Shown: positions 34,406 to 61,611 of the stretch, piece after piece | Layout: each line of letters begins with the position of its first letter | How positions within the stretch are numbered: the first letter of the stretch is position 1 | Source: a virus | Lineage: Duplodnaviria > Caudoviricetes | Direction: 5' to 3' (one strand) | IMG/VR virus record: IMGVR_UViG_3300032216_000320 | Coordinates: 1-61,611 of that record | DNA length: 61,611 nucleotides | Notes under the pieces: model-generated | Told to the model about the DNA's origin: nothing | The model's database searches: none | Seen by the model: only the letters and a program-made list of their open reading frames with translations | Position numbers and translations under genes: made by a program

Positions 34406-35284
34406 TTACTCGTCGCCGTCATCAGCCCATGCGTCAAGCACAGAGGCTACGTCTTTGGATTCCGTTTTCTTCACGGCACGTTTGACAGGTTCGTCAACGG
34501 CTTCAGCTTTGGCGGCTGGCTTGGGTGCAGGCTCTACAAAAGGAGAAGCCTTGGGTGCATCACCATCAATCTGAGCAACCGTTTGTGTTACAGCGTTCAG
34601 CGCATCTGCTGATTCACCTTGAGCTTTGCTCTCGGCCAACTCTTCCACAGACAAGGGGCGCACAGCGCGGAATGTCAACTTAGGTGTTGCACTGGCTGTA
34701 TCAAAACGCATCTCGGTCACAACGGCTGTCACGGGAATACCATGGCCACCCAAGAACTTGGCGTACTGTTGCAGGGGCATCTTGCCATTCTCACCTGTGC
34801 CAAAGATTGACTGGCCGGGCAGTGTCAACTGATACACATCACCAGACAAGTTGTTCTCTAGCGCCACGGCAATACGCTGATTAAAGCGGCAAGCACGGCT
34901 GTCGCCCTGACCGGAACCCTTGATGTTCTGCTGGCAGTTCTGGCAGCTAGTGCTTTGTGGATCTTTCACACCTTTATCGGGTGCAACGCCATCAGAAGAT
35001 GAGCATGAAGGTGCAGAGTTCTGGCCTTCAACGTAAGTGCCTGCATAGTATTGGCGTGATGTTTTTTCAGCAGAGCGCACGATTACCACGTTCATGGCGC
35101 GGTCGTCATTCTGTGCAACTTCTTTACCGCCAACAACCATGCGGAATACACCGCCACGGATTGAGATACGCTTGCCATTACCACCGCCACCCATCAGGGC
35201 TTTGGTTGTTGCGTCCAGTTCAAGGTTACGCAAGTGAGCGGGGAGAGTGTTACCACCTTGGGAGAAGAGAGCGATGTCAGACAT
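34406..35284 (-). CDS. Single-stranded DNA-binding/annealing-like protein
   Basis: RISIRGG.F, C.S.DG..P...C..C..N..GS...RAC pattern; acidic aromatic tail WADDGDE; replication module. Confidence 0.6.
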   Translation of the reverse strand: MSDIALFSQGGNTLPAHLRNLELDATTKALMGGGGNGKRISIRGGVFRMVVGGKEVAQNDDRAMNVVIVRSAEKTSRQYYAGTYVEGQNSAPSCSSSDGVAPDKGVKDPQSTSCQNCQQNIKGSGQGDSRACRFNQRIAVALENNLSGDVYQLTLPGQSIFGTGENGKMPLQQYAKFLGGHGIPVTAVVTEMRFDTASATPKLTFRAVRPLSVEELAESKAQGESADALNAVTQTVAQIDGDAPKASPFVEPAPKPAAKAEAVDEPVKRAVKKTESKDVASVLDAWADDGDE

Positions 35285-35495
35285 TTGTCGATTCCTTTTT
35301 GATAAATGTGTTGATGATTTCTAAATCAATGTTGAAAAATTTGGCAAGGTCACTAGCGAAGAATCGATAGTTCTTACCAACGCGGATAAATGGGATACGC
35401 TTCTCAGGGTTTTCTTCCCTAATCAGCGCATGGACAGTTGACGGTGCGACTTGCAAAAGCTTCGCCACCTGCGCCAACGTAAGGGCAGTTTCCAA
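35277..35495 (-). CDS. Excisionase-like HTH protein (TTG start)
   Basis: LTLAQVAKLLQVAPSTV...IPFIRVGKNYRF. Confidence 0.75.
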   Translation of the reverse strand: METALTLAQVAKLLQVAPSTVHALIREENPEKRIPFIRVGKNYRFFASDLAKFFNIDLEIINTFIKKESTNV

Positions 35496-42944: not shown

Positions 42945-44093
42945 TTAGATGTGCACCGTGACTCCATGCGGTGCGACAGTTTGTTTATTGTTGATGCACC
43001 AAAGCACAGGGGCTGGCCAGTCACCGCCCCAGTCACCAAACACTTCACCATCCGTCAGCATGACAATACAGTCCGGCACAATGCGCTGCTCACGCATATA
43101 GCGTGTGACGCAACTCGGTTCTGTACCGCCCCCACCCTTGGGCTTTGTGCTTTGATGCAGTGTACTGATCGAATCGGCTTCGTAGATTTCGTGTGCAGCT
43201 ACATTGTGCCCCCAATACATCAAGTCCACAAGTTCGGGTTTAACCGAATCACACACGCCCTGCACTTCTGCAAGGAACGTAGCCAACACCTTGTCATCAA
43301 TCGAGCCTGATGTATCAGCACCAAGGGCAATACGAAACACGCTGTCGCTGTAGGATGTAGGCGCCATGACATCTTGGCTCATGAACCTGCGATCAATGCG
43401 TCTATACGATGTGTAGTCGTAGCCCGGCTTGCAGTTGGTAATGAAGTCACGCAGTGCCTCACGCCAATCCACCTTGGGCTTGAGCATCTCAAGTATGTTG
43501 CGATCCACGTTCGCACCTGCCTTGCTTGCAAAGATGTTGCCTTGCCGTAACGCTTGGTCAACTGCCTTGCTCAACTCGTCAGCCTGCTCATCGGTCAGCT
43601 TGGATGCCCCGTCCCAATCGTGTTGGTCAAAGCCCTTGGGCTTCTTGCTCTGACTGCTATCTTGCTTGAGTAGTTTGAACACTTGCCCCGCATCCATGTC
43701 ACGGTACTTCTCGTCAACACACCCACCGTCAGGTAGTTTTACAAATTGATCTTTGTAGTATCTATCTTGGATGGGTAAGTTGATGACGTAGTCACACGCC
43801 ATGTTCGCAAGCTCAGCATCCTCATCATGTAGGTAGCTCCAAGTACGTAGGTGTTTGAATGCGCAGTGCATCTTCTCGTGGAGCACAAGCCCCATAAGTT
43901 CCGCATCGGTTAGCTTCTCAATGAACTGCAAACCATACTCAGCATCTAGGCCATCGGTACGTGCTGTAAGGTTAGGGTTATCCACTACTTTGTTTTTACC
44001 CATAGGGATGATGCCTACCAACCATGTATATTCTTTGTCACGTAGCAGAGATACGTGAGCACGCTCAAGGCGTTGGGATGGTGTTAGTTGCAT
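42945..44093 (-). CDS. HExxH metallopeptidase + vWA domain protein (start revised to MQLTPS)
   Basis: TARTDG, LHEKMH, N.ACDY.IN; MIDAS DTSGS, GGGT, LTDG. Confidence 0.88.
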   Translation of the reverse strand: MQLTPSQRLERAHVSLLRDKEYTWLVGIIPMGKNKVVDNPNLTARTDGLDAEYGLQFIEKLTDAELMGLVLHEKMHCAFKHLRTWSYLHDEDAELANMACDYVINLPIQDRYYKDQFVKLPDGGCVDEKYRDMDAGQVFKLLKQDSSQSKKPKGFDQHDWDGASKLTDEQADELSKAVDQALRQGNIFASKAGANVDRNILEMLKPKVDWREALRDFITNCKPGYDYTSYRRIDRRFMSQDVMAPTSYSDSVFRIALGADTSGSIDDKVLATFLAEVQGVCDSVKPELVDLMYWGHNVAAHEIYEADSISTLHQSTKPKGGGGTEPSCVTRYMREQRIVPDCIVMLTDGEVFGDWGGDWPAPVLWCINNKQTVAPHGVTVHI

Positions 44094-44100
44094 AGTAACC

Positions 44101-45156
44101 TCACGCAAACAAGTATTGTTTATCGATAGCAAACTTGGTGAACTGATCGTTGTCAAGAACAAACTGCTTGCTTTCTTTCTTGATGATCGATGTGCAGAAC
44201 AATGCCTGCACCTCACGTTGCATACGAGCCATGTACGTCATCCATGAGTCAAGCGTATCCTCGGTCACCCAGTTCAAGGCTTGGTACGCAAGCATCAACC
44301 TGCTTGGTATTTGGTCAGGCAAACGGGCGGTGTCGGGGCTACTGATGATCTCAGCACGCTTAGGTAATGAGTCACCCATAGAAATCCATGACTGAATATC
44401 AAGGGCAGCAGGTGCACCGATCGTACCGATCAACGCTGTCTCCAACGCATTGGGTGTAAACAAGTGACGCTTGTTGATGATCTTGGATGCTTGCTCCAAT
44501 GATCTGTGTGTCACGAACGCAGAGCGTTGCGCCTTGGGGTGATAGATCAACGGATTGTCATCGGGGTTATCGTACATCTCGTACGAGTGCAAAGCATCGG
44601 GGCGCTCACCCACCCACATGATGACCTCGGGTGCAATGTTGTTCAGCCGTGCATAGTTCTCAACCCACTCGTCACCCGTCTGCTTGGCCATACGTACTGA
44701 CGTTATACGATTGCGGTGATGGGGCTTGAGCATATCACCCACACCCTCGCCACCTAGGTTGGTGGTCATGAACACAATGGATTCCTTGTGCAGATAGTTG
44801 TGGCCTTGCCGTCTCTCAACAGGCAGGGGCAGTGCCGCATCTTGCGCTGAGCGTGACCCCTTGCCGAACTCATCTAGCATCAGGATCACAGGCACATCGC
44901 TACCTAGCCCGAATGATTCGTTGTAATAGAACTCAGTGGTCTTGGTTGTATGGTTAACCGCAGGTACACGGAAGTCGCCCTCGTGCATCACAGTCATGTC
45001 CATGTACACCTTGCGGTGGTTGGGGAATCGCTTGCCGATGGCATGTATCAAAGATGATTTACCAGAACCGATGTGGCCTTCCACGATCGGGGTTACCTCT
45101 GAGCCTACGGCACAGATGAAGTCAACAGTTTCGTTGTAGTTCATTGAAGTTTGCAT
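44101..45156 (-). CDS. MoxR-like AAA+ ATPase
   Basis: Walker A GHIGSGKS; Walker B LMLDE; sensor TTN; NR. Confidence 0.85.
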   Translation of the reverse strand: MQTSMNYNETVDFICAVGSEVTPIVEGHIGSGKSSLIHAIGKRFPNHRKVYMDMTVMHEGDFRVPAVNHTTKTTEFYYNESFGLGSDVPVILMLDEFGKGSRSAQDAALPLPVERRQGHNYLHKESIVFMTTNLGGEGVGDMLKPHHRNRITSVRMAKQTGDEWVENYARLNNIAPEVIMWVGERPDALHSYEMYDNPDDNPLIYHPKAQRSAFVTHRSLEQASKIINKRHLFTPNALETALIGTIGAPAALDIQSWISMGDSLPKRAEIISSPDTARLPDQIPSRLMLAYQALNWVTEDTLDSWMTYMARMQREVQALFCTSIIKKESKQFVLDNDQFTKFAIDKQYLFA

Positions 45157-45171
45157 GATGTTTCCAGTTAG

Positions 45172-45438
45172 TTATTGAAGGGGGGTATCAGATTCGTACT
45201 TATCGTGTAATGCTTTGGCCGCAAGTGTGGCGTCGAAGCAAGCTCCGGTCGCACCCATCACGCTACCTTTATCTGCACCATGCTCGACAGCGATAGCGCA
45301 GGTCATACGTAGCAGTACGTTAATCACAACGTCAACACGCATGCCACCGTTTTGTGAAATGGTTTTGAACAGGGCTTCGTACAGATCGTCAATCTCTACG
45401 CGCATCTTGGGGTCATCAGGTGGTTGTTGGTATTTCAT
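45172..45438 (-). CDS. Hypothetical protein
   Basis: In operon. Confidence 0.6.
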   Translation of the reverse strand: MKYQQPPDDPKMRVEIDDLYEALFKTISQNGGMRVDVVINVLLRMTCAIAVEHGADKGSVMGATGACFDATLAAKALHDKYESDTPLQ

Positions 45439-45439
45439 A

Positions 45440-46309
45440 TCAAATGTCCAGTGAAAATTTATCTTTCAGTTCATCCATCTTGGTAATGATGGAGTTGCGC
45501 ATCTCAGGTGACTCACGCAGGGATTTGATGTCCACGTCAGTCAGAGATAGTTCAAGGGCACGGCGTGCCGCTTCCAAGTCAGGGTCATCTAAGATGTTCA
45601 ATGACTTCAAGGTACTACACAGACCCAATGCGTTGTCGAGCATGGATTGATATAGCTTTTGTGGCTTGCCGTCTTCCTTGGCAATCATCTTATCTCGGAT
45701 GTGTTGCACTTCTTCGTACAACCGATCCCAAGGCTCTTGCATGGCCTCTCGCATACGGGTAGTCGTAGCCGCTTCAAACCTAGACTTGAGTTGCTCAGCC
45801 GCTTCCGCAGGGATGTCAACACGGAAGTCACCCGCTTCAGGCACAGGGGTGAAGTGATACCGCAAGCCAAACTTATGCTCGATGGCTTCCACAGTTGGGT
45901 ACTCGGCAGGGTCAAACAACTTACCAAGCTTGAACGCCTGAGAAGAAATCTTGACCCCGTAGTTGGTCACAAACTGCTGAACCAAGCGATCAAATTCCTT
46001 CTCGTGTTCACCCAACTCGTGTGAGATGTCAAAGAAAGCTTTGGTTGGAACAAGCCGTGTGCCTGAGTCAGACCACGGCAGGGTAACTGAATACAACCAT
46101 GTACGCACCTTGCCAGCGTGTGAATTGATTGCCTCCAGATCAGCGTCACCTACGAACAGTGACTTGTAAACCGAAGCAGCTTTACTGGATCGGGTGTTCT
46201 TTGCAAGGTTGACCTCTTCAGCCGTGACCTTGTCTTGCTTGCGCCCTGTGTACACAGAGATGTTCATGTCAAGCAACATTGCAGATGATGATAGTGATTT
46301 ATGTTTCAT
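45440..46309 (-). CDS. DUF3150-like protein
   Basis: TLPW...G.RLVP...YP...F......PVP..GDFR; typical partner of phage AAA/vWA genes. Confidence 0.65.
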   Translation of the reverse strand: MKHKSLSSSAMLLDMNISVYTGRKQDKVTAEEVNLAKNTRSSKAASVYKSLFVGDADLEAINSHAGKVRTWLYSVTLPWSDSGTRLVPTKAFFDISHELGEHEKEFDRLVQQFVTNYGVKISSQAFKLGKLFDPAEYPTVEAIEHKFGLRYHFTPVPEAGDFRVDIPAEAAEQLKSRFEAATTTRMREAMQEPWDRLYEEVQHIRDKMIAKEDGKPQKLYQSMLDNALGLCSTLKSLNILDDPDLEAARRALELSLTDVDIKSLRESPEMRNSIITKMDELKDKFSLDI

Positions 46310-46329
46310 AACAGTTTCGTTAAAGATGT

Positions 46330-46345
46330 TTCCTACCAGTAGGAA
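46330..46345. repeat. Palindrome copy 7: TTCCTAC-CA-GTAGGAA
   Basis: Intergenic, 3 nt after a minus-strand stop. Confidence 0.9.
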
Positions 46346-46348
46346 AAA

Positions 46349-46516
46349 TTAAGTTGAAGGATTGGTCAGACGCTCCACCCTGCGCAGGGAAATCCAGTTG
46401 TCACCGAGGTAACGAACCGAACGAACCCACGCACGGATGTTGTGGCGTTGAACGTTGGAGGGAATTCCCTCCACGCACCAAAGCTTGCGAGCCAATTTAA
46501 GTTTTGACGTGTTCAT
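46349..46516 (-). CDS. Small basic protein, 55 aa (not in the ORF track)
   Basis: MNTSKLKLARKLW...HNIRAWVRSVRYLGDNW. Confidence 0.65.
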   Translation of the reverse strand: MNTSKLKLARKLWCVEGIPSNVQRHNIRAWVRSVRYLGDNWISLRRVERLTNPST

Positions 46517-46533
46517 AAAAGGCAACCAGTTAC

Positions 46534-46911
46534 TTAGCCCATGCGGAGAACTTCGACGTTTCCCGTGGTCATGTTGCGCATAGTTTTGTAGTTACCCTTG
46601 CCCCACAACACGTTAGACATAGATGCGGCTGAGCCTTGAATCTCTTTGACATCAGAGTTGTTGGGGATCGGTATCACACATACGTCACCCACCTTCATTG
46701 GCTTGAGGTAGGGCAAGATATGGCCACGCAAATATCCAAGCGGGTTGCGTGATGGGGCACGCTTTTTCTTGGGTGGGGTTGCATCGGGCACGTGCAGTTT
46801 GAGATCACCCTCGATGATCTGCTCACCCGTAGGTAGCACGATGATGTATTGCGCACGAATGATGTTGAGCAAACGTGTTGCGTCTTTTGCGGTTTTGGTA
46901 ATGATGTCCAT
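46534..46911 (-). CDS. Small putative DNA-binding protein
   Basis: MKVGD...IP...VEVLR C-terminal domain. Confidence 0.65.
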   Translation of the reverse strand: MDIITKTAKDATRLLNIIRAQYIIVLPTGEQIIEGDLKLHVPDATPPKKKRAPSRNPLGYLRGHILPYLKPMKVGDVCVIPIPNNSDVKEIQGSAASMSNVLWGKGNYKTMRNMTTGNVEVLRMG

Positions 46912-46977
46912 GATAGGTTATGTTTTCCGTTTAGTTTCAAAAAGATTGATAGTTAAGTTTCTGACTTAACAAGGTTA

Positions 46978-47006
46978 AGTATACATGATAAAGGTCGTTG
47001 TGTCAA
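46978..47006 (-). promoter_or_regulatory. Near-consensus sigma70 promoter with an overlapping inverted repeat (46964-46980)
   Basis: TTGACA-N17-TATACT; ACTTAAC-AAG-GTTAAGT over the -10/start site. Confidence 0.8.
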
Positions 47007-47021
47007 ATGTGTTTGTAGTAT

Positions 47022-47111
47022 CTATGGCCTCCAATAAAAAAGATCAGCAAGAAGTACCATCACTGCAATGAGTAACAGCACGCGTTCAAATTTTTCCCAA
47101 GGTGTCAGCAT
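47022..47111 (-). CDS. 29-aa single-TM peptide
   Basis: MLTPWEKFERVLLLIAVMVLLADLFYWRP. Confidence 0.5.
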   Translation of the reverse strand: MLTPWEKFERVLLLIAVMVLLADLFYWRP

Positions 47112-47389
47112 TTGAATGTTTCCTTTATGTATTGCATAGCTTCACGTCGGGTATCAAAGCCTCGGTACTCACCGTCTTCATCTATCCATTCGTCGGTGGT
47201 GTCGCCGTAGATAACCCAGATATCACCTGATCGCTCAACGTGCCAACAGTTTGAATCATTGAAGTTCTCCATGTATAGCTGGTGCACAATCTTCTTACAC
47301 GTTGTGTCGTCGTACCCTGTCAGGCGTTCAAGTTCTGCGGGGTGATTCTCTTCTAGCAGGGTGATGATCTGCTCTTTGAGTGTTGTCAT
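47105..47389 (-). CDS. Small acidic early protein
   Basis: ATGA overlap with the upstream gene. Confidence 0.6.
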   Translation of the reverse strand: MTTLKEQIITLLEENHPAELERLTGYDDTTCKKIVHQLYMENFNDSNCWHVERSGDIWVIYGDTTDEWIDEDGEYRGFDTRREAMQYIKETFKC

Positions 47390-47679
47390 TTTGTTTTCCC
47401 CCTTGCAAATTTAAGTGCCTCATCCCATACAAGCCACGCATCTTCGATGGATGTAAAGATGTAGTCAGGCATGACATACTTGTTGGTTGGCCGTAAGAAG
47501 TGCACCACATCCTCTCGTGTACCAACGGCTACACAACGTAGATACGTTGTCATGAACGCCATGTCTTCGGATGTCAGGTCTTCTTGCTGATCTTGCTCCT
47601 CTTCCTTCTGTGCCTGCTCGTCGAGCATGCGTTGGTGGTCGGCCAACATGTTGGTGTAGTGTGCGTCTAGTCCGTTCAT
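47386..47679 (-). CDS. Small early protein (start revised to MNGLDA)
   Basis: GGAG RBS; ATGA overlap. Confidence 0.6.
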   Translation of the reverse strand: MNGLDAHYTNMLADHQRMLDEQAQKEEEQDQQEDLTSEDMAFMTTYLRCVAVGTREDVVHFLRPTNKYVMPDYIFTSIEDAWLVWDEALKFARGKTK

Positions 47680-47855
47680 ACATACTCCCATGATGTCTCA
47701 GTTACACAGTCAATATTCCAGTCACCCCCGCCCGTAGGCTCGAAGTCACTGCCGTCCATGGCTATAGCTAACGCTCGCGCCTCCTCCTCGCTTTCTGCCT
47801 CGACGATGGCGTCACACCATACGACGTAGCTTGCTTGTATGTAATAGCGTTTCAT
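47676..47855 (-). CDS. Small acidic early protein, 59 aa (not in the ORF track)
   Basis: AGGAG RBS; IVEAESEEEA motif. Confidence 0.6.
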   Translation of the reverse strand: MKRYYIQASYVVWCDAIVEAESEEEARALAIAMDGSDFEPTGGGDWNIDCVTETSWEYV

Positions 47856-47856
47856 T

Positions 47857-48048
47857 TCATTTCTCCTTGTGGTACTGGGTAAAGATAATCTTGCCGTGGT
47901 AGTAGTGCGGTGTTATCCAGTCACCGCCCCACTTATCTGCCTCGTCCTCGATGTCGTCTTCCTCGACAAACCCCGCGTGTTTGACCGAGTGAACTACCGA
48001 TTCGTCATCGGTAAAAAAGATGTCACCAAAAATTACAAACAGTTTCAT
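47857..48048 (-). CDS. Small acidic early protein
   Basis: AGGAG RBS. Confidence 0.6.
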   Translation of the reverse strand: MKLFVIFGDIFFTDDESVVHSVKHAGFVEEDDIEDEADKWGGDWITPHYYHGKIIFTQYHKEK

Positions 48049-48059
48049 TTACTTTCTCC

Positions 48060-49154
48060 TTAGTGTGTTACGTGCAACAATTCAAACAGCGTGCACAGTA
48101 CTGTGTCTACATCTACTGACTTGAGCATGTACATAGCCCTGTCAATCAGCTTGTGGTCGATCAATCGTTTGTCCATGTGTTTGATCGCCATGTCTGGGTC
48201 TTCGGGATACACCGCTTCAGCGATCATGTACATCAGGTCGTAGGGCTTGCCAAACTCAGCGTCATACAGTGCGTCATACAACATCTCACGGTACTGCTCT
48301 TCGTCATTGATGTCGTACTGCCATATACCTGTGCCGTATACATTGGCAAAGCCTGCGTAGGATTTACTCTCCATCTCATACACACCCGGCTCACGCTCGG
48401 TTGGTAGTTGATCCCACTTGACTTTCAGCACAGCTTTGGACAGCGCATGGAAATGCAGTACGTCGAGGGATTCCTCGTTGCTGTGCTCACGGTCATAGCC
48501 TACGCTGATGTTGGTGCACTCGGGTATCAGGTGAACGAACTCTGCTGTGTCGGTGTACACACCGGTTGGGTCAGGCGAATACATGAACATATCGTCAGCA
48601 AGGTTGAGTTCATCGCTGAGATGTTGTGCAAAAGAATCGGAACAACACCGGCCATACGCTTGGTCTGTGATGATGCTATCGATACCGCGTCTGTCAAAAG
48701 CAACCGCCCTGTCGAATTCACTGAGCAGTTGTGGATAGTTCTCGGCTAGGTGTGACGCACCGATACCGCCCTTCTCTTCGCCTTGGGTAAACACATAGTA
48801 CGCAGGGACACCGGCACACATCATGTGCATCAGCATGGCACAACCCGCACCATCGTCAGCACCGAGGGGCGCACCATCCGCACGCCAATGCGTCTTGGTC
48901 TTGGTGAACTTATTTGGTGCAACTTCTTTGTGCACAGTATCCACATGGGCAACGAACAGCGTTTTGTGTGAGCCAAGGCTACGCGCATCGACGTGCAAGT
49001 TACCCGCCACATCACGCCATGTCTTGTCGGCCAAGTGTTTGGGCACATGATCTTCAAGCCACTGGGTGAAGTACGCAGTTGCAGTTGTGTTGTGTGGCCG
49101 TGCAATGGATAGAGCACGGGTCAAAGTTTTGTAAAGGATAGATTTAGTTTGCAT
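48060..49154 (-). CDS. M28/M20-clan Zn-dependent peptidase
   Basis: AHVDTVH, LGADD.AG, EE.GG.G, AFDRRG, YTD, NISVGY..EH. Confidence 0.88.
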   Translation of the reverse strand: MQTKSILYKTLTRALSIARPHNTTATAYFTQWLEDHVPKHLADKTWRDVAGNLHVDARSLGSHKTLFVAHVDTVHKEVAPNKFTKTKTHWRADGAPLGADDGAGCAMLMHMMCAGVPAYYVFTQGEEKGGIGASHLAENYPQLLSEFDRAVAFDRRGIDSIITDQAYGRCCSDSFAQHLSDELNLADDMFMYSPDPTGVYTDTAEFVHLIPECTNISVGYDREHSNEESLDVLHFHALSKAVLKVKWDQLPTEREPGVYEMESKSYAGFANVYGTGIWQYDINDEEQYREMLYDALYDAEFGKPYDLMYMIAEAVYPEDPDMAIKHMDKRLIDHKLIDRAMYMLKSVDVDTVLCTLFELLHVTH

Positions 49155-49175
49155 AATGTTTCTTAAGTTAAAAGT

Positions 49176-49192
49176 TTCCTACTTGGTAGGAA
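49176..49192. repeat. Palindrome copy 6: TTCCTAC-TTG-GTAGGAA
   Basis: Directly adjacent to a minus-strand stop. Confidence 0.9.
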
Positions 49193-50617
49193 TTATTCAG
49201 TACTTGTGTCAGCCTCTGTTTCGGGGCAGTACTTGGGGTGGAACTTCTCATCGTTCACCTCGACATACTCGGTGTCATCCGTGTACCAATCGCATGAGTG
49301 AGTGCATTGCCAGCCGTCTTCGCACAAGCCCCATTCCTCGGTGTCTTGGAAGTAGCAGATGCGCTCGTCACCGGTCAGGTAATAGTTGCCGTCAATCTCA
49401 ATGACTTCTTCGAGATGTTCATAGTCACCGTTCTCAAGTTCAACGATGTTGTTATCCTCGAGATAGTTTTGGTGATAGTACTGATCGCGTGATTCCACAT
49501 AGACAGCATCGTCCTCATGGAAGCGATACTCACGCCCATTACGGCCACGGCCTACGCGGTAGTCATTTTCACAACCTGAACAAATCAGGTGATCTTCGTG
49601 ATAACCCGCCCAATAGCCATCGCCTTCATCGATCCAGTCACCGCACGATGTGCACTCTGCACGGTTGGCAGTATCAGCATCGCCATCGGTGTTGGAACAC
49701 TCGTACTCACCATCATCATCGATGCGCAGATACGCTTCACCACCGGCATGACCTACACTCACAGTTTGATTACAGCCATCGATGTATGGCGCGATGAACC
49801 CGCAGTTGTTATTGTCATCTTCGATGTGGCGAAGCCGTGTGCCACATCCCCAACCGCCACGGTGTTCATAGCCATTGTCTCTGAGCCACGCTTCGAGGAT
49901 GTCGTCACGGCCTGAGTACCCAGTATCGTTGCGCAGATAGCTACGCACAAAGTACTTATCATCACCGTCATCCATGACAAGCGCACGGCCTAGAGTTGCA
50001 CCGTCAACGATGCGCACGGCCAAGCCCCATCCATACTTGGGTGCATAGGTTTGGTATGGATGTTCGTCAGGGTCGGTGTCGCCCCACTGCATACATGATC
50101 TTGGGCCACGCTCTATGTGGTAGATCATCTCCGCTGTGGTACGCACGATCTTGCTCTCACCCTTGCCACTCAAAGCAGCTAGGTCACGTATAGCATGGGC
50201 AGGCAGTGTGCTGAAGTGCCGTGTCAAGTACTTGCCTACCGTGGTCATGGTCTGCACATCATCTTCGCCCTTACGATCGTTGACCGTGTAGGCTATGCGT
50301 GTCGAATCCTTCGTGGCCACGTGTGGCCATTCCAGTAGCAGTTGTTGCCAATCGTCAGGTCTTGCCAACTGCATTGCCTTCGTGATGACAGGGTGCAGGG
50401 CAAATTGATGTTGCTGATGTGCATGCCAAGCACGGGTGTAGTGGCTATCCTTTGGCCTACTCATGGGTATGAGTCGGTAGGAATCATTGGTTTGGCAGGC
50501 ATACAAAGTGTTGTAGTGAGTGTTGTAATTCATGTACTCACGCACGCCACGTTTCAAGATGTGAGCGGCTTGCCAGAATATATCCATCATGGCTTGGGGG
50601 TCGTATGTAGTTTCCAT
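49193..50617 (-). CDS. Early protein with an acidic, Cys/His-rich repetitive C-terminus (start revised to METTYD)
   Basis: GPRSCM, GRALV, FVRSY core; CTSC, CSGC and CTHSC. Confidence 0.75.
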   Translation of the reverse strand: METTYDPQAMMDIFWQAAHILKRGVREYMNYNTHYNTLYACQTNDSYRLIPMSRPKDSHYTRAWHAHQQHQFALHPVITKAMQLARPDDWQQLLLEWPHVATKDSTRIAYTVNDRKGEDDVQTMTTVGKYLTRHFSTLPAHAIRDLAALSGKGESKIVRTTAEMIYHIERGPRSCMQWGDTDPDEHPYQTYAPKYGWGLAVRIVDGATLGRALVMDDGDDKYFVRSYLRNDTGYSGRDDILEAWLRDNGYEHRGGWGCGTRLRHIEDDNNNCGFIAPYIDGCNQTVSVGHAGGEAYLRIDDDGEYECSNTDGDADTANRAECTSCGDWIDEGDGYWAGYHEDHLICSGCENDYRVGRGRNGREYRFHEDDAVYVESRDQYYHQNYLEDNNIVELENGDYEHLEEVIEIDGNYYLTGDERICYFQDTEEWGLCEDGWQCTHSCDWYTDDTEYVEVNDEKFHPKYCPETEADTSTE

Positions 50618-50673
50618 ATACTTTCCGTTTGGTTTCAAAGATGCGGTGTGAGACGGCACACCACGAACCGTTT

Positions 50674-50690
50674 TTCCTACGCGGTAGGAA
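50674..50690. repeat. Palindrome copy 5: TTCCTAC-GCG-GTAGGAA
   Basis: 3 nt after a minus-strand stop. Confidence 0.9.
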
Positions 50691-50693
50691 AAT

Positions 50694-50912
50694 TCAGCGC
50701 CCACCTTTATGGGATGAGTTAAGGTTGAGTAACAGTGACCGGTCGGTCACCACGATGTAGTTGCTCTTGGGCATGGGCACAATGGTGTGCTTGCGCTCTC
50801 TAGCTTGTGCTTCCCCGCACGTCATACAGGTGCGGTATCCGAGCTTGGCTCGGGCAGGGGTCACACGTTCTGCATAACAGCACGTGCAGATGGGTAAGTG
50901 GTAGTGGGTCAT
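50694..50912 (-). CDS. Zn-finger protein, DksA/TraR C4-like
   Basis: CTCC...R..LG..TCMTC. Confidence 0.65.
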   Translation of the reverse strand: MTHYHLPICTCCYAERVTPARAKLGYRTCMTCGEAQARERKHTIVPMPKSNYIVVTDRSLLLNLNSSHKGGR

Positions 50913-51070
50913 TCGATTTCCTCAATGACAAGCACGGCGAGGCCACCCACGCAAAAGCCCGAGAACATCATGAGCAGTTGTTTATAGGGTGCTTCAAAGT
51001 CAGACCACCCAAGGTAGGCGCAGATTAAAAAGCCCGCAGTGAATCCGATGGCGTAAAAAGTGTTGTTCAT
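50909..51070 (-). CDS. Small two-TM protein (start revised to MNNTFY)
   Basis: GGAG RBS; two hydrophobic segments. Confidence 0.6.
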   Translation of the reverse strand: MNNTFYAIGFTAGFLICAYLGWSDFEAPYKQLLMMFSGFCVGGLAVLVIEEIE

Positions 51071-51084
51071 AAGTTCTCCGTTTC

Positions 51085-51517
51085 GAGTTGATAAAGTGGT
51101 GCGGTACACACCCAAGAGGGGACACGAATCCCCTCCCAGTTGCATACAACTTGTTTGCTGTATTGTTAACACGGTGGGTTCTGATGTTTGCCACCATGCG
51201 TAGTGCTTACTCTTTATATGGTTTGATTGTTCTGCTTCTACTTGTGCTATCGGGTTTCGGTGCGTCACGGCACACTACTTTGCTACACCACACAAGTACG
51301 CCGACTGGGTACGGCACGCCTATTCGCACAGGAAAAGTTCATGGCATGGCGCAGGTCATAACTCTGCATCAGCTTCCCCTCTATGTGCTTCTCGTATTAC
51401 ATTAGTTCCGAGCGGCGGTTTACTGTATGTACTGGGATACATACGCTTGATATGTTTTTAAAGAACTTTCCTACTGGTAGGAAAAACCGATGTATGGGCA
51501 CGATTTCCCAAATGGCT
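51085..51517 (-). ncRNA. Long structured non-coding leader / candidate ncRNA
   Basis: Downstream of a strong promoter, no credible ORF; stems 51116-35, 51239-46/51291-98 and 51425-44. Confidence 0.4.
51468..51483. repeat. Palindrome copy 4: TTCCTAC-TG-GTAGGAA
   Basis: About 35 nt downstream of the predicted start site. Confidence 0.9.
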
Positions 51518-51523
51518 AAAGCC

Positions 51524-51552
51524 ATTGTACCATACAAAAAGGGGTGTGTCAA
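51524..51552 (-). promoter_or_regulatory. Near-consensus sigma70 early promoter
   Basis: TTGACA-N17-TACAAT with extended TG; inverted repeat AATGGCT-AA-AGCCATT at 51511-26. Confidence 0.8.
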
Positions 51553-51609
51553 GTCAAGACATGATGAAACAGTAGATGGCGGTATCATATACCCCACGTT
51601 CCAGAACGC

Positions 51610-51990
51610 TCATTCGATGCGCTTGACCTTCAAATAGTGGCGCTGACCCCACTTAAATTTAACAGTGGTGTATTCTTTATTGCTCAGGCTTAGCTCGCGG
51701 AAGATCATGGCGCGCACGGATTTGGCCATCTCGTGGGGCACGCAAAAATAATTGCTGACTTCTAAACTACGTAACTTGCGTAGGGGGTCTTGGTCGGGTT
51801 TCAGCATCTTGATGGTGGCATCGCGCTTGCGCTGTTCACGGCTGACTTGTTCGGCTTCTTTTATGTTGGCGGTGCGCTTGGTTTGCAGTGCGTGCAGTTG
51901 GGCAGGGGTTTTGGCGGTGGTGTCGGCTTGCACTTGGTCGGCAAGGGTTTGCATGAGTTGGGGGTCGAGGCTGAGGTCAATGGGTTTCAT
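51610..51990 (-). CDS. Small putative DNA-binding protein
   Basis: LEVSNYFCVP...YTT...LKVKRIE. Confidence 0.65.
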   Translation of the reverse strand: MKPIDLSLDPQLMQTLADQVQADTTAKTPAQLHALQTKRTANIKEAEQVSREQRKRDATIKMLKPDQDPLRKLRSLEVSNYFCVPHEMAKSVRAMIFRELSLSNKEYTTVKFKWGQRHYLKVKRIE

Positions 51991-51994
51991 GTGC

Positions 51995-52460
51995 GTGTTC
52001 CAAAGTTCTTCGTTCCGAGTGTGTATCTTGTGCGTTCCAAATGATGTATTGGAACACGTATTGTATCAGTTTTAATGCTGTGCGGTGTAGTTTGCAAAGA
52101 GGGGTTTTGTGGGTGTTGCTTAAAAAATAGGCTGAAACCGAGTACGGTTCTAATTTCAAAAATCACACTTTCCAAGAAAGAAATTCCTACCAAGTAGGAA
52201 AAAGTCAAGGCTTGATCCCAGACGACCTCACGCAAAACCCCTCAAAATTCTTAAATGAAAATTTCCCAGACTGACTTTGCAAAACTTGGAACACACTTGG
52301 TTTATATATATATAAATATATTATTTTATTATTATTAGAGTGCTTTTTTGCTTTAGAACAGTTGCTAAACATTACAAGACGTGATTAGATGGGTGTTCCG
52401 ATAAAAAATTAGAACGTTCTAGGAACGTGCTAGAAAGCTGGAACATTTGGAACACGCGTG
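51995..52460. other. Candidate replication origin: AT-only core flanked by GTTCC/GGAAC repeats
   Basis: Pure A/T run at 52301-52337; many GTTCY/RGAAC pentamers. Confidence 0.55.
52184..52200. repeat. Palindrome copy 3: TTCCTAC-CAA-GTAGGAA
   Basis: Non-coding region. Confidence 0.9.
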
Positions 52461-52598
52461 GTTGCGTGGCCATGACTGCGTAGTTGCATAGTTGCTTCCC
52501 CCACCAGTTCCCCTGCAAAAGTGAGTACTTCGGATACTACGTACAAAATGAAAACCAGAACTTAAGTACGCAAAAAAGCCCGCGTAAAACGCAGGCGC

Positions 52599-52622
52599 AA
52601 AAAAACCCGCCTAAGCGGGTTT
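52599..52622 (-). terminator. Rho-independent terminator after the first early gene
   Basis: Minus strand AAACCCGC-TTAG-GCGGGTTT then a T-run. Confidence 0.8.
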
Positions 52623-52627
52623 GGTTT

Positions 52628-52643
52628 TTCCTACCGGTAGGAA
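52628..52643. repeat. Palindrome copy 2: TTCCTACCGGTAGGAA (perfect)
   Basis: Directly adjacent to a minus-strand stop. Confidence 0.9.
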
Positions 52644-53159
52644 TTATTCGGCGTCATCTTTGTTTAATGCTGTACCGTTTGCCTCAAGCACGTATTCAAT
52701 AGCGTCAATCAATGTTGACCCGTCGGCCATTGCGGTTTCAACTTGCACCAATACATCTTCGCCTACGGTTGACAACTTCCAAACGTTCAACAATGCGGAT
52801 AACATTTTATCTGATGCTGATTTTTCGTTTGCTTTTGTACCCGCGCCCTTCGCGCCCTTAGCCTTGCCCTTGGATGCACTGAAAGAAAATTCAGCACCAT
52901 TGTTCACGGCGTCAACTACTGATGTTACATAATTGTCGCGGGTTTTTTTCGCAGTTTTTGGAAACGCAACAGCGTACGCGTCAACGCATTGACGACGATA
53001 CTCGCAGGTTTTGACTGATTTGCCCATTGTGATTGACCCTGCGCGCAGGGTTTCAATGTGACCCTTGATAACGTCAAGGGATGATAGACCCGCATTGTGC
53101 GCAGTGGCGATACCCTTGAAAAGAGCAATAGTGTCGAGAGGTTTAGTTGAAGTTGACAT
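52644..53159 (-). CDS. First early gene, hypothetical 171 aa (start revised to MSTSTK)
   Basis: AGGA RBS; has its own promoter and terminator. Confidence 0.7.
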   Translation of the reverse strand: MSTSTKPLDTIALFKGIATAHNAGLSSLDVIKGHIETLRAGSITMGKSVKTCEYRRQCVDAYAVAFPKTAKKTRDNYVTSVVDAVNNGAEFSFSASKGKAKGAKGAGTKANEKSASDKMLSALLNVWKLSTVGEDVLVQVETAMADGSTLIDAIEYVLEANGTALNKDDAE

Positions 53160-53216
53160 TTTAGTGTTTCCTAAAAATATCGGGTCAATCGATATTGATT
53201 GTTTGCCGATGTGTCT

Positions 53217-53247
53217 ATTATAACCTAGTTTTGTATTGTCTTGTCTA
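53217..53247 (-). promoter_or_regulatory. Possible early promoter
   Basis: TAGACA-N19-TATAAT (perfect -10, long spacer). Confidence 0.45.
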
Positions 53248-53259
53248 GTCTTGTCATGT

Positions 53260-53275
53260 TTCCTACCGGTAGGAA
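53260..53275. repeat. Palindrome copy 1: TTCCTACCGGTAGGAA (perfect)
   Basis: Immediately upstream of the early promoter. Confidence 0.9.
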
Positions 53276-53279
53276 AAAA

Positions 53280-53530
53280 TCGCGCCCTCTCCCCAAACGC
53301 CACCAGTTCCCACGGCGCGACCCCACCGGCCCCCCACCACCACTTTGGACTTCGGGACTCCGTAGCTGCGCCTACAGTGTATTCCACACGAACGATGCCC
53401 AATTATTTTTAAATCACACCCCCACCCCTCGCGTTCCAGAACACCACCCCCCATCAAAATAAAACGCCATGCAAAAAATTTTTATAGCAAAAATCCAACA
53501 AAGTCATGTTCCGGAACACCACCCCCTTAA
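53280..53530. other. Candidate genome terminus / packaging region
   Basis: Divergence point of the two arms, upstream of TerS; C-rich tracts; direct repeat GTTCC(A/G)GAACACCACCCCC at 53433 and 53508. Confidence 0.4.
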
Positions 53531-53537
53531 TAGTGTC

Positions 53538-53568
53538 TTGACACGCTTTATATTTTTTATGTTATATT
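53538..53568 (+). promoter_or_regulatory. Promoter for the terminase operon (possibly leaderless)
   Basis: TTGACA-N19-TATATT with extended TG; ATG 7 nt after the -10. Confidence 0.5.
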
Positions 53569-53574
53569 CGCGCC

Positions 53575-54204
53575 ATGCTGACCTGTATCCCAGAGTTGAC
53601 GGTGCCAATCCCAAGCAAGCGGGAGGACGTGGTGTCTTTGCACACCAAGGTAAATGCGCTGTTTAAGACGGCTGAATTTCTAGAAGCATTTGGTGCGCCC
53701 AATGAACCATCGGAAGAAGATAAGGTGCGAGCACGCACTGCGTTCCATGAGTCAATCAGCACCGCCAAAGAGACAAGCATAGCCACGGCCCAGACCAATG
53801 CGGTTACAACAACTGCGGCGGCAATACACCTCAAGTCAATCTTGAGTGAGTACGATCAGGTGGTGGTGAGTTCGGCTGTGCAGATCAGAACGTATGTAAC
53901 CAACAAGTTGATTGAAGAGACAACGCACCCCGACCCCAAGATTCGGATTCGGGCATTAGAGTTGCTAGGCAAGGTGGGTGATGTGGGCCTGTTCATTGAG
54001 CGCAGCGAAATCACTGTCAAACACAAAACCACGCTGGAGCTTGAGGCTTCTATTAAAGATAGGATTTCCAAACTGCTTGAACTTCGCAGCAAGTCAGAAG
54101 ACATCCAAGATGTGGTAGTCAAACCAAAGACTTTGCAGGAAAGCAAAACTGAAGTGTTGAGCACACCAACGTTAGTACGCACTAACGAGAAAACAGATGA
54201 TTGA
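53575..54204 (+). CDS. Terminase small subunit-like protein
   Basis: Directly upstream of TerL; RIRALELLGK...GLF motif. Confidence 0.65.
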   Translation: MLTCIPELTVPIPSKREDVVSLHTKVNALFKTAEFLEAFGAPNEPSEEDKVRARTAFHESISTAKETSIATAQTNAVTTTAAAIHLKSILSEYDQVVVSSAVQIRTYVTNKLIEETTHPDPKIRIRALELLGKVGDVGLFIERSEITVKHKTTLELEASIKDRISKLLELRSKSEDIQDVVVKPKTLQESKTEVLSTPTLVRTNEKTDD

Positions 54205-55732
54205 TTTTTCCAACTTCACAATCGAAGATCTACAAAACGTAGATTTGGCCAAACTTGATCCTGAAGATTTAGAATCGTTTGATGCCACACTGGAAGAATT
54301 GACAAAACGGGAAGCGGCAAAAGTTGCACGGGGCAGCCTGCTAGAGTTCTGTTTGAAAATGAACCCCGACTATAAGATCGGTAAGCACCACCAGAGGCTG
54401 GCAACACTTTTGGAAGACATGGCGTTCAACCGCAAAGACCGGATTGCTGTCTCTATTCCGCCACGCCATGGTAAATCGTTCTTGGTGTCTGTTTATTTTC
54501 CTGCATGGTTTCTAGGTAATTTCCCTGATAAGAAGGTGCTGATGGTGTCGCACACCACAGACTTGGCCGTTGACTTTGGACGCAAAGTTCGTAACTTGGT
54601 TGACCTAGATACTTACAAAGAAATATTCCCAACGGTGACGCTGGCGGCAGACAGCAAGTCAGCCGGACGGTGGAACACCAACTCAGGCGGTGAGTATTTT
54701 GCGTGTGGTGTGGGTTCCGCCTTGGCCGGTCGCGGCGCTGACTTCTTGATTGTTGACGATCCGTTTTCTGAGCAGGACATCTTGAACGGCAACTACGAGG
54801 TGTTTCAAAAGGCATACGAGTGGTTTACTTTTGGTGCACGTACCCGTTTGATGCCGGGTGGCCGGATGGCGATTGTGCATACACGCTGGCACCCCAACGA
54901 TCTGATTGGCATGATGGCCAAGGACATGGCCCGTAACGATGACGCGGATAAGTATGAGTTCTTTGAATTCCCAGCCGTGTTTAACGAGGGCATGCCAGAT
55001 GAGAAGGCGCTGTGGCCTGAGTTCTTTGACTTGGATGCACTGCGTAGAACAAAAGCGTCGATGCCACTGTTTCAGTGGAACGCTCAGTATCAGCAACAAC
55101 CCACCAGCGAAGAAGGTGCGATTGTAAAGCGCGAATGGTGGAGGCCATGGGAGGAAGAAGATCCACCCGAGCTTGAGTTTGTCATCATGACCCTTGACGC
55201 GGCGGCTGAGAAGAATAACCGCGCTGACTTTACAGCACTGCTGACGTGGGGTGTGTTCAGTGATGCTAGGCGCACCGATGGGAAAGCGCACATTATTTTG
55301 ATGAACGCCATCAACAAACGGGTGGAGTTCCCAGAGTTAAAAGACTTGGCGCTGGAAGAATACAGAGAGTGGGAGCCTGATGCGTTCATCGTTGAGAAGA
55401 AGTCAAGTGGCACGCCACTGTTCCAAGAGCTTCGGCGCATGGGTATTCCTGTCTCAGAGTTCACCCCACACAGGGGCACGGGCGACAAAGTTGCACGATT
55501 AAATGCGGTTGCGGATATTTTCAGATCGGGCATGGTCTGGTATCCTGCGGGTAGACGCTGGGCAGAGGAAGTAGTAGAGCAGGTGGCTGCGTTTCCCGCG
55601 TCAGATCATGATGACATGGTTGACTGCACAAGTATGGCGTTGCATCGGTTCAGGAATGGTGGGTTCATCAACTTGGACAGCGACGAAAAAGATGACATTT
55701 ACTCAATACCGCGCAGAGCGTCGTATTACTAA
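54197..55732 (+). CDS. terL: Terminase large subunit
   Basis: PPRHGKS (Walker A), IVDDP (Walker B), TRWH, YQQ.P, HDDMVD nuclease motif. Confidence 0.95.
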   Translation: MIDFSNFTIEDLQNVDLAKLDPEDLESFDATLEELTKREAAKVARGSLLEFCLKMNPDYKIGKHHQRLATLLEDMAFNRKDRIAVSIPPRHGKSFLVSVYFPAWFLGNFPDKKVLMVSHTTDLAVDFGRKVRNLVDLDTYKEIFPTVTLAADSKSAGRWNTNSGGEYFACGVGSALAGRGADFLIVDDPFSEQDILNGNYEVFQKAYEWFTFGARTRLMPGGRMAIVHTRWHPNDLIGMMAKDMARNDDADKYEFFEFPAVFNEGMPDEKALWPEFFDLDALRRTKASMPLFQWNAQYQQQPTSEEGAIVKREWWRPWEEEDPPELEFVIMTLDAAAEKNNRADFTALLTWGVFSDARRTDGKAHIILMNAINKRVEFPELKDLALEEYREWEPDAFIVEKKSSGTPLFQELRRMGIPVSEFTPHRGTGDKVARLNAVADIFRSGMVWYPAGRRWAEEVVEQVAAFPASDHDDMVDCTSMALHRFRNGGFINLDSDEKDDIYSIPRRASYY

Positions 55733-55733
55733 T

Positions 55734-56000
55734 ATGGCAACACAAAAGTTTATGGGTAGACACCACTTAGTTGACCGCTTGGCGGCACAAGTTGGCTCCA
55801 AAGAATCGGCTGTATCCATTCTCAAGAAGCGTGGGGATATGAACGCTAAAGGGGAGTTGACTAAAGCGGGTAAAGTGCGAGATGCTATGACTGCCAAAGA
55901 ACGCGCTATTGACCGTGAGAGTAAGCGTACCGGCAACAAATCATCGGCGTACAAATATGACCCGCGCACAAACCGCGCGACTTTAAGAAAGAAATCTTGA
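55734..56000 (+). CDS. Small basic protein (start revised to MATQKF)
   Basis: Between TerL and portal. Confidence 0.6.
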   Translation: MATQKFMGRHHLVDRLAAQVGSKESAVSILKKRGDMNAKGELTKAGKVRDAMTAKERAIDRESKRTGNKSSAYKYDPRTNRATLRKKS

Positions 56001-56001
56001 C

Positions 56002-61171: not shown

Positions 61172-61611
61172 ATGGCTATTTCACGCGCACAACTACTTAA
61201 AGAACTGCTCCCCGGCTTGAACGCTTTGTTCGGCCTGCAGTATGCTACTTACGGCGAAGAGCACAAAGAAATCTACGAAACAGAGAAATCTGAGCGTAGC
61301 TTCGAAGAAGAAACCAAACTGTCTGGTTTCTCTGCCGCTCCAGTCAAGAACGAGGGTTCAGCCATTGCTTATGACAATGCGCAAGAAGCGTTCACGGCTC
61401 GCTATAACCACGAAACCATTGCCTTGGGTTTTTCAATCACTGAAGAAGCGATTGAAGATAACTTGTACGACAGCTTGTCTGCTCGCTACACCAAGGCATT
61501 GGCCCGTGCTATGGCTTACACCAAGCAAGTTAAGGCTGCTGCAGTCTTGAACAACGGCTTCACAGCTGGTTATAACGGCGGCGACGGCGTTACTTTGTTC
61601 AGTGCTTCACA
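61172..61611 (+). CDS. Major capsid protein N-terminal part (runs off the window end)
   Basis: AAGGAG RBS; MAISRAQLLKELLPGLNALFG... Confidence 0.9.
   Translation, partial: MAISRAQLLKELLPGLNALFGLQYATYGEEHKEIYETEKSERSFEEETKLSGFSAAPVKNEGSAIAYDNAQEAFTARYNHETIALGFSITEEAIEDNLYDSLSARYTKALARAMAYTKQVKAAAVLNNGFTAGYNGGDGVTLFSAS
61250..61611 (+). repeat. Imperfect terminal overlap with 1-362
   Basis: First 62 nt identical, then colinear but diverged. Confidence 0.92.

Follow-up and report, generated by a model that had tools for sequence, protein, structure and literature searches.

What is the function of a short palindrome that recurs seven times among the early genes of a phage, with invariant arms and a freely varying centre, and is found nowhere else in the same genome? 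The question is raised by IMG/VR record IMGVR_UViG_3300032216_000320 (Caudoviricetes), a DNA of 61,611 nucleotides that was analysed over its whole length and is referred to here as the window. The record is of the linear class and 98% complete, and derives from an uncultivated freshwater podophage that is apparently lytic. The element is TTCCTAC-N2/3-GTAGGAA. It is well supported as a system of cis-acting elements, while its mechanism is unproven. A plausible, if still tentative, reading of its sequence and distribution is that the copies form an array of double-stranded DNA operators or roadblocks, bound by a phage-encoded sequence-specific protein that would control early transcription. The overall pattern suggests that the early genes are under a private control code that evolves fast.

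Exact matching recovers seven copies in the window and none in 100 dinucleotide-preserving shuffles, in full agreement with the coordinates, centres and gaps given in a preliminary description of this DNA. The copies, to which no strand is assigned, are as follows.

53260-53275: copy 1, TTCCTAC-CG-GTAGGAA, upstream of the first early promoter and 37 nt before its TATAAT
52628-52643: copy 2, centre CG, abutting the TAA stop codon of the first early gene and followed by two intrinsic terminators
52184-52200: copy 3, centre CAA (plus strand), followed by a T-rich run on the minus strand; present in the terminator scan
51468-51483: copy 4, centre TG, 40 nt past a strong sigma-70-like promoter, within the leader
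50674-50690: copy 5, centre GCG, 3 nt past the stop codon of a 72-aa zinc-ribbon gene
49176-49192: copy 6, centre TTG, 0 nt past the stop codon of a 474-aa gene; the ATG of an M28-like peptidase gene follows after 21 nt
46330-46345: copy 7, centre CA, 20 nt before the ATG of the DUF3150 gene

From 53260 inward, successive gaps are 632, 444, 716, 794, 1498 and 2846 nt. The 7-mer TTCCTAC occurs 19 times on both strands, compared with 4.6 expected, and 14 of these occurrences are palindrome arms. When up to three mismatches are allowed in the N2 form, only two extra hits appear, each with three mismatches (at 4046 and 37889); thus there are no degenerate copies elsewhere in the window. All seven copies are intergenic under our gene model and lie in the leftward early block 46330-53275, and neither the exact nor the relaxed search adds a copy outside it, as had been described. 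Among the gaps of at least 16 nt between 46310 and 53159, six of seven are occupied, the seventh copy being located upstream of the first gene; between 31024 and 46309 the figure is none of five. The palindrome therefore tags early gene junctions, and its apparent thinning mirrors the longer genes further inward. Also borne out were the placement of four copies 0-3 nt past minus-strand stop codons (0 nt for 49176 and 52628, 3 nt for 46330 and 50674) and the association of two copies with promoters, that at 53260 lying upstream of TATAAT and that at 51468 lying 40 nt downstream of TTGACA-17-TACAAT.

The element is conserved in relatives of the phage, and is confined there to the same part of the genome. 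A search anchored on the large terminase gene, TerL, provided 80 loci of relatives; exact copies are present in 34 of these, invariably on the early side of TerL. With the core CCTAC-N2/3-GTAGG as query, 73 loci contain 152 sites upstream of TerL (190 kb) and none downstream (481 kb). Exact copies number 123 in 732 kb of relatives; a further 36 have one mismatch and seven have two. The mismatches are nearly all at the two outermost arm positions, several of them where a TAA stop codon overlaps the arm, and none is compensated on the opposite arm. When sites are matched through their flanks, identity is 93-100% at the outer arm positions, compared with 40-93% in the 30-nt flanks, the inner five arm positions being set by the search pattern in this comparison. 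The centre changes in both sequence and length at matching sites (copy 6, for example, appears with CAA, CA, CC or AT), and 25 different centres are found among 110 distinct sites. Beyond the arms only the adjacent bases are biased, to T or A before and A after, so that the palindrome is partly extended. The arms are thus under strong purifying selection that is specific for sequence.

More distant relatives have palindromes of their own. Loci in which TerL is 63-65% identical have no TTCCTAC element and carry other recurrent palindromes on the early side. Further types emerged from a search anchored on the DUF2201 gene, in which 80 loci were kept of 578 confirmed relatives. An arm with at least three copies is present in 43 of these 80 loci, a count made without a shuffle control, and families with three copies, for example GCACCA, may have arisen by chance or be unrelated. 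The types are listed below.

TerL 63-65% loci: GTATACC-N2-GGTATAC, GTTAGGC-N3-GCCTAAC and GTTAGGG-N3/5-CCCTAAC
DUF2201 loci, with copies in one locus: TACTGTC-N1 (12), TTCATAC-N1 (12), TAATGTC-N1 (9) and TAAACC-N2 (8)
DUF2201 loci, further types: TTAACA-N2, TAAACA-N0-3, GTAGTGA-N1, GTCTACA-N2 and GTCGGAC-N3
DUF2201 loci, further types: TATACAC-N4, ATGACCA-N5, AGTGTCA-N3 and TTAGGTA-N2

A tally over 16 palindrome types gives 249 distinct exact sites. In the complete genome G006, all 10 copies of GTATACC-N2-GGTATAC are located in the leftward early/middle block (43865-56518).

At least 16 lineage-specific palindromes occupy positions that match those in the window. The first copy is situated 12-31 nt before the -35 hexamer of the first promoter in at least five palindrome types. 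Another copy is found after the first gene beside the terminator; in the window, L166 and L139 the palindrome comes first, and in G006 and L081 the order is reversed. A third recurrent position is 37-45 nt past the TATAAT in the leader of DUF3150, and a fourth is a few nucleotides upstream of the Shine-Dalgarno sequence, as in L139, G006 and L086, where 13-22 nt separate the end of the palindrome from the ATG. The DUF3150 ortholog of G006 is preceded at 21 nt by that genome's own palindrome, whose sequence is unrelated to that of the window. The set is replaced whole between lineages at positions that are kept, namely the first promoter, the end of the first gene, DUF3150 and DUF2201. Such behaviour is familiar from the operator-repressor sets of phages. 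In the cultured relative HTVC027P, where gene order differs, no recurrent palindrome was found in the 41 kb examined.

Repeated re-coding of the whole set in place requires a reader that acts in trans and changes along with the sites. We suggest that a sequence-specific phage protein, probably a homodimer, would bind the seven sites as duplex DNA and control host RNA polymerase on the leftward early operons. One site flanks the first early promoter. At the others, which are intercistronic or located in leaders, the protein once bound would stop or modulate the polymerase during elongation and in this way time or shut off early expression. Co-evolution of site and reader would give each phage lineage its private sequence. 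From these patterns we infer the duplex action, the protein nature of the reader and its identity, and the transcriptional effect. A wider proposal is possible, though doubtful: that the early program of a large, uncultivated family of aquatic podophages is run through a private, rapidly re-coded palindrome of 15-19 bp that would tag all early transcription units, and that set and reader have been swapped at least 16 times under diversifying selection, in a manner fitting competition. Cross-silencing or exclusion between co-infecting lytic relatives, a form of 'immunity' without lysogeny, would fit such a scheme. In a bolder version of this proposal, the element would be extruded as a hairpin and recognized by a novel class of factor that accepts any loop.

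The surroundings of the copies bear on how the sites might be read. The principal features next to them are given here.

53217-53247, minus strand: probable first early promoter, TAGACA-19-TATAAT (TATAAT at 53222-53217), inferred from reading by eye
52644-53159, minus strand: first early gene, 171 aa, between copies 1 and 2, with a predicted four-helix N-terminal domain
52578-52622, minus strand: two tandem intrinsic terminators after the first gene, from the terminator scan
51524-51552, minus strand: sigma-70-like promoter TTGACA-17-TACAAT with an upstream TG, from the promoter scan
50694-50912, minus strand: zinc-ribbon protein of 72 aa, recognized from the CxxC...CxxC pattern in its sequence

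The promoter scan missed TAGACA-19-TATAAT owing to its 19-nt spacer. Between copy 1 and its TATAAT (53223-53259) there are short GACAAGAC-type tandem words, and relatives show GACAAGACAGGACAAGAC... in this place. The double terminator with copy 2 (52568-52651) is the best-conserved non-coding block, and is 77-83% identical in the distant loci L054, L059 and L060 despite flanks that do not align. Downstream of the strong promoter and copy 4 there are approximately 400 nt without a convincing open reading frame (51071-51467), which could be a leader or a small RNA; this segment has no Rfam match, and its first 30 nt past copy 4, which include a 7-bp hairpin, are 93% conserved in 11 relatives.

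The 72-aa zinc-ribbon protein retains an identity of about 65% in L086 and L083, which carry palindromes of other types, and has an ortholog in L171; we take it to resemble a TraR/DksA-type zinc finger, although Pfam gave no match. For the 474-aa early protein, the protein atlas returned only unnamed viral clusters and the PDB no sequence match. Two simple roles for the copies were rejected. A classical activator site for the downstream gene is at odds with start codons only 13-26 nt past many copies, and sequestration of the Shine-Dalgarno sequence by the GTAGGAA arm is at odds with the distance of that arm from the ATG (at least 20 nt) and with the arms of other types, which are not Shine-Dalgarno-like.

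Symmetry alone cannot decide whether the sites act as duplex DNA or as hairpins, since a palindrome in DNA is equally a hairpin stem as a matter of sequence. Imperfect copies are more informative. Among 59 one-mismatch copies from 16 palindrome types, the broken pair is G.T in four, A.C in 12 and another non-pair in 43, and the lack of a G.U bias argues against selection for a stem in the sense RNA. In L083 the half-sites GTTAG[T/C]CG vary independently, leaving a C-A mismatch within the sense-strand stem in two of five sites. The copy upstream of the first promoter, in at least five types, is probably outside early transcripts. Fixed arms around a free centre are usual for proteins that read two major grooves about one helical turn apart. 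On balance, these comparisons would favour duplex recognition over a hairpin. The preliminary description had leaned towards a hairpin or cruciform, or half-sites bound independently, and away from a rigid dimeric operator; its premise of a variable centre length holds, even at matching sites in relatives, and the missing G.U bias speaks against the version with a sense-RNA stem.

A hairpin in early RNA or in transient single-stranded DNA, read by a sequence-specific phage factor, remains a possible but rather doubtful alternative; it could serve for nut/boxB-like loading of an antiterminator, as a processing site in early RNA, or as a translational or stability operator. Stems of 6-9 pairs and modest stability are predicted for the copies (-4.8 to -8.9 kcal/mol as RNA, -3.0 to -6.7 as DNA). 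A loop would tolerate the changing length of the centre, and the strand bias of the centre speaks for a hairpin too. The location of copy 2 between the stop codon of the first gene and the double terminator, and of copy 4 about 35-50 nt into a leader, resembles that of lambda nutR and nutL. Lineage-specific hairpins combined with a first gene that evolves fast would be the counterpart of boxB and N, and palindromes that end shortly before the ATG, 5' of the Shine-Dalgarno sequence, as in L139, G006 and L086, would suit an RNA signal. However, free loops on fixed stems are the reverse of boxB and of most RNA-protein hairpins. Compensatory pairs and G.U enrichment are both lacking, and besides the copy ahead of the first promoter there are palindromes that follow the first-gene terminator, in G006 and L081. 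Rfam reported nothing at gathering score, with only two sub-threshold sRNA matches at 52570-52670 (21 bits, compared with about 50). The copies also failed a test for intrinsic terminators: an A follows the 3' arm in 84% of the 110 sites, the stems have three G-C pairs, and a loose terminator scan was passed only by the copies at 52184 and 49176.

The operator reading calls for a reader protein, for which one candidate is the following.

35277-35495, minus strand: HTH_17 protein of 72 aa, a predicted MerR-like winged helix (Pfam E 3.6e-10; AF2 pLDDT 87)

With the model of this protein as query, Foldseek returned BldC-DNA, the excisionase RdfS, TraN and RacA-DNA, with probabilities of 0.98-1.0 and E of about 0.1 for all. 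Homologs are found at the same place in G001, G002 and G006. Ten hits from window-type loci share an N-terminal helix-turn-helix that hardly varies; seven of them show TTCCTAC arms, and the other three have little early flank. The helix-turn-helix differs in G006, L138, L156 and G010. On the basis of this model and its distribution, the HTH_17 protein is a candidate reader, neither proven nor universal. Further possible readers are small early proteins, among them the product of the first early gene. This gene is always bracketed by two copies and evolves fast, with 31-82% identity among 27 orthologs. The model of its product (pLDDT 75) has no Foldseek match at E <=0.001, and the best VIA-align Z of 6.3 is to generic helical bundles, so that the fold search is uninformative rather than negative.

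Small sigma-70 region-4-like proteins are present in L171, L140, L169, L175 and L180. L110, whose DUF2201 protein is 93% identical, encodes at 2935-3738 a 268-aa protein with a clear sigma-70 region-4 segment. Neither kind has a homolog in the window, G006 or G001, and a sigma-like protein is not an obvious common reader, since the recognition helices differ among TTAACA-type loci. A comparison of the TACTGTC and TAATGTC types, which are fairly close, left too many differing early genes for a reader to be singled out. The reader may be non-orthologous between lineages.

Several observations weigh against an operator array with a phage-encoded reader. The centre varies by 1 nt (N2/N3) at matching sites, and by up to 2-3 nt in other lineages (N3 and N5 in L081, N0-3 in the TAAACA type); a rigid dimer should not tolerate this, and a hairpin loop would. 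On the sense strand of the 110 distinct sites, centres are biased, with CC in 28 and GG in one, and CT in five and AG in none. The genomes are related rather than independent and the bias may be overstated; it is nevertheless not predicted by a symmetric duplex site. Most sites are in transcribed leaders just upstream of ribosome-binding sites, which fits an RNA signal too, and none overlaps a -35 or -10 hexamer called by the promoter scan. Searches for HTH_17 gave no hit in G009, a complete genome of the TACTGTC type, in G011 and G012, or in G013 (a 36%-complete fragment). The first-gene family reaches L171 and L166 and is not detectable in L086 or G006. An HTH_3 protein (34090-34314) was rejected as a universal reader; G006 is without a homolog and has no room for one at that place.

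The arrangement of the genome bears on a further proposal, that the sites act as the DNA enters the cell. The major capsid gene is split by the ends of the record, with its C-terminal part at 1-834 and its N-terminal part at 61172-61609. The assembly is therefore circularly permuted, and the record ends are not genome ends. The plus strand carries the following gene.

54197-55732, plus strand: TerL (large terminase), on the same strand as the portal and structural genes

The plus-strand genes, which comprise TerL, the portal and structural genes, wrap around to 1-30948, where the last of them encodes a 2385-aa protein. Leftward from about 53400 to 31000, the minus strand holds the small early genes, DUF3150, an ATPase and DUF2201, and a replication block of family A DNA polymerase, PD-(D/E)XK exonuclease, SNF2 helicase and DUF927 primase-helicase. 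In scans of the window proteins against PHROG and Pfam, no repressor or integrase module, no lysogeny genes and no transposase were found. No tRNA genes were found in the window. For 46000-53500 no near-identical phage record was matched. By TerL (43-46% identity), the nearest phages are the Pelagibacter phages HTVC027P and HTVC023P, DSL-LC04 and 023Pt_psg01.

As the preliminary description had proposed for this vicinity, a genome end or terminal-repeat border just past copy 1 is likely from the following comparisons, an assembly break being the other reading. Of 33 contigs of relatives that stop near TerL, 20 project to 53267-53471 of the window, and the complete 65.7-kb relative G001 starts about 950 nt upstream of TerL, with eight of its eight copies within the last 5.6 kb. 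In the assembly of run X1, the probable source, contigs break at 53400-53423, within the same zone, and depth falls from 20.3 to 15.4.

With the copies clustered beside a probable genome end, they might be places on the first-injected DNA where a protein, either ejected from the virion or supplied by the host, is loaded or gives protection, the idea to which the thinning gradient had first given rise. Large ejection-type proteins are present, including the polyvalent 2385-aa one, and lineage-specific sites would fit a fast-evolving virion protein. Yet the gradient does not survive as evidence for DNA entry: spacing tracks gene length, almost every gapped early junction is occupied, and equivalent sites extend 12.6 kb inward to the DUF2201/ATPase genes in G006 and beyond DUF2201 in L171, L118 and L141. 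The conserved placement at promoters, terminators and leaders points to gene expression, and a host protein is improbable as reader because the sequence differs between related phages. We thus consider a DNA-entry system unlikely.

The giant protein at the end of the plus-strand genes raises the alternative of N4-like hairpin promoters, used by an unrecognized phage RNA polymerase that is possibly delivered by the virion and would transcribe the early genes starting at the first-injected end.

23791-30948, plus strand: giant virion protein of 2385 aa, from PHROG and Pfam matches

Residues 89-509 of this protein match PHROG 2206, 'virion RNA polymerase', towards the N-terminal part of the profile with E 2.4e-17. 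One copy is near the probable genome end, others are directly upstream of genes with room for a short leader only, and the co-variation of whole sets resembles that of phage RNA polymerases and their promoters. Nevertheless, the PHROG match covers only 177-602 of a profile of 3406, the sole Pfam match is LPD38 close to the C-terminus, and there is no PDB sequence match and no polymerase domain found by sequence. By eye, the protein has a long Pro/Ala/Lys-rich linker, an HExxH motif and an SYGC motif of L,D-transpeptidase-like type. Identity to the 2398-aa protein of G006 is only 29% over 315 aa. From these sequence features the protein is read as a polyvalent ejection protein rather than a polymerase. 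Among the 83 window proteins searched against Pfam, RNA polymerase, integrase and recombinase families gave no match, and the initial impression that neither RNA polymerase nor integrase is visible was thereby upheld. Terminators follow straight after copy 2, sigma-70-like promoters are present, and the site with its immediate flanks is symmetric and so gives no direction. The centre is free, whereas N4 promoters need a conserved 3-nt loop, according to excerpts of PMC4496689. Hairpin promoters are thus very improbable.

The palindromes could also be recombination or mobility elements, either micro-homology borders of early-gene cassettes, as was initially offered as a second option, or miniature mobile palindromes. 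Copies do lie at gene borders of a highly mosaic region, and relative to the ATPase-DUF2201 pair the DUF3150 gene is on one side in the window and on the other in L171, where in both cases palindromes mark the borders. In run X1 one contig joins the end of copy 4 (51468-51484) to the minus strand from 46329, continuing for at least 255 letters past copy 7. Copies 4 and 7 share 19 nt in inverted orientation, and the junction is that expected for an inversion of 46346-51467 by exchange between copies; it could represent a true minor inversion, or else a chimera formed in the library or the assembly. A change of gene content at the motif is not clearly seen in the alignments. In five close relatives, only two of about 20 distinct homology breakpoints, at 52649 and 50696, are within 25 nt of a copy when judged by eye, compared with about 5% expected from position alone. 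Most copies are inside collinear blocks, and the alignments of at least 80 nt listed for 11 loci all keep their orientation. Insertion bursts would not predict sites that persist through a swap of their sequence from one lineage to another, the window yielded no transposase or recombinase, and 16 nt is short for homologous exchange. A recombination role therefore has little probability.

A second motif is found in the same region. GTTCYGGAAC palindromes number four on both strands, compared with 0.15 expected (51598-51607, 53433-53442 and 53508-53517), and 14 GGAACR half-sites are found in 51760-54775, compared with 3.5 expected, with clusters at 51995-52057 and 52288-52455. Similar words of the CCAGTTCC type are also found beside the palindromes of other lineages. 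Judging from these occurrences, the GTTCYGGAAC/GGAACR motif may be common across lineages, unlike the main palindrome.

With the TTCCTAC element and its counterparts as sequence handles, the early region and the probable genome end can be located in metagenomic contigs and lineages can be sorted, and pull-down with the element offers a direct route to the regulator. Should competition between lytic phages prove to underlie the swaps, the reasoning developed for immunity and stoperator evolution would no longer be limited to temperate phages. A genome paper on HTVC023P-type phages (PMC9599517) has no occurrence of 'palindrom', 'promoter' or 'hairpin'. A literature search on repeated intergenic palindromes in phage early regions gave nothing relevant among the matches listed. 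Neither result proves that such elements are undescribed.

Among known systems, lambda has two nut sites per genome, which are always transcribed and in which the boxB loop is recognized. The likeness lies in a lineage-specific short hairpin after the first gene, before a terminator, and in an early leader. The differences are that there are 7-12 sites here, with arms fixed and centre free, and that one is upstream of the first promoter. Location within a transcript and upstream of terminators, as for nut, holds for copies 2 and 4, and does not hold for copy 1, G006 or L081. The T4 PeSL elements, which border exchangeable cassettes, are stem-loop repeats of about 50-70 bp that carry an early promoter and separate small early genes in a part of the genome that is plastic; the repeat of the window has 16-17 bp and no promoter, and breakpoints are not clearly enriched. 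The ram sites of RacA in Bacillus subtilis and the OB sites of KorB in plasmid RK2 comprise tens of identical 13-14-bp palindromes that are clustered in one part of the replicon at variable distance from promoters. They are read by small helix-turn-helix proteins for chromosome anchoring or plasmid-wide repression, and specificity swaps between close relatives are not known in these systems. The RacA-DNA complex is among the fold matches of HTH_17, and no ParB or KorB family protein was found in the window.

The early promoters of N4, as described in excerpts of PMC4496689, are inverted repeats with 5-7-bp stems and a 3-nt loop near the first-injected end. They need A or G at -11 and G at -10 in the loop, a conserved +1 and a virion T7-like RNA polymerase. 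The window resembles N4 in having few short inverted repeats ahead of early genes near a probable first-injected end. A conserved loop and a polymerase define N4 promoters in those excerpts; the window differs in its free centre, and sequence searches gave no polymerase domain.

The closest parallel is with the stoperators of mycobacteriophages. According to PMC6550527 and PMC9283540, the stoperators of the L5 repressor gp71 are dispersed, near-identical short sites, mostly in short intergenic gaps, that stop elongating polymerase. They are asymmetric 13-bp sites read by a monomer, oriented with transcription and distributed genome-wide in temperate phages, where they serve immunity. In Cluster A, differences in motif between lineages track repressor distance, according to PMC6550527. 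The window shares with them many near-identical intergenic sites along transcription units, in which sequence and not only structure is conserved. It differs in that the sites are palindromic with symmetric flanks and restricted to the early region, and that no integrase or lysogeny genes were seen. Co-variation of the stoperator kind can be compared as well: there are at least 16 lineage palindromes, and the HTH_17 helix-turn-helix tracks the TTCCTAC type and is missing in G009. The system is not a member of the stoperator family, because it is palindromic, limited to the early region and carried by an apparently lytic podophage. By analogy, its mode of working would nevertheless come closest to that of dispersed operators or roadblocks whose specificity co-evolves, of which stoperators are the best-documented case.

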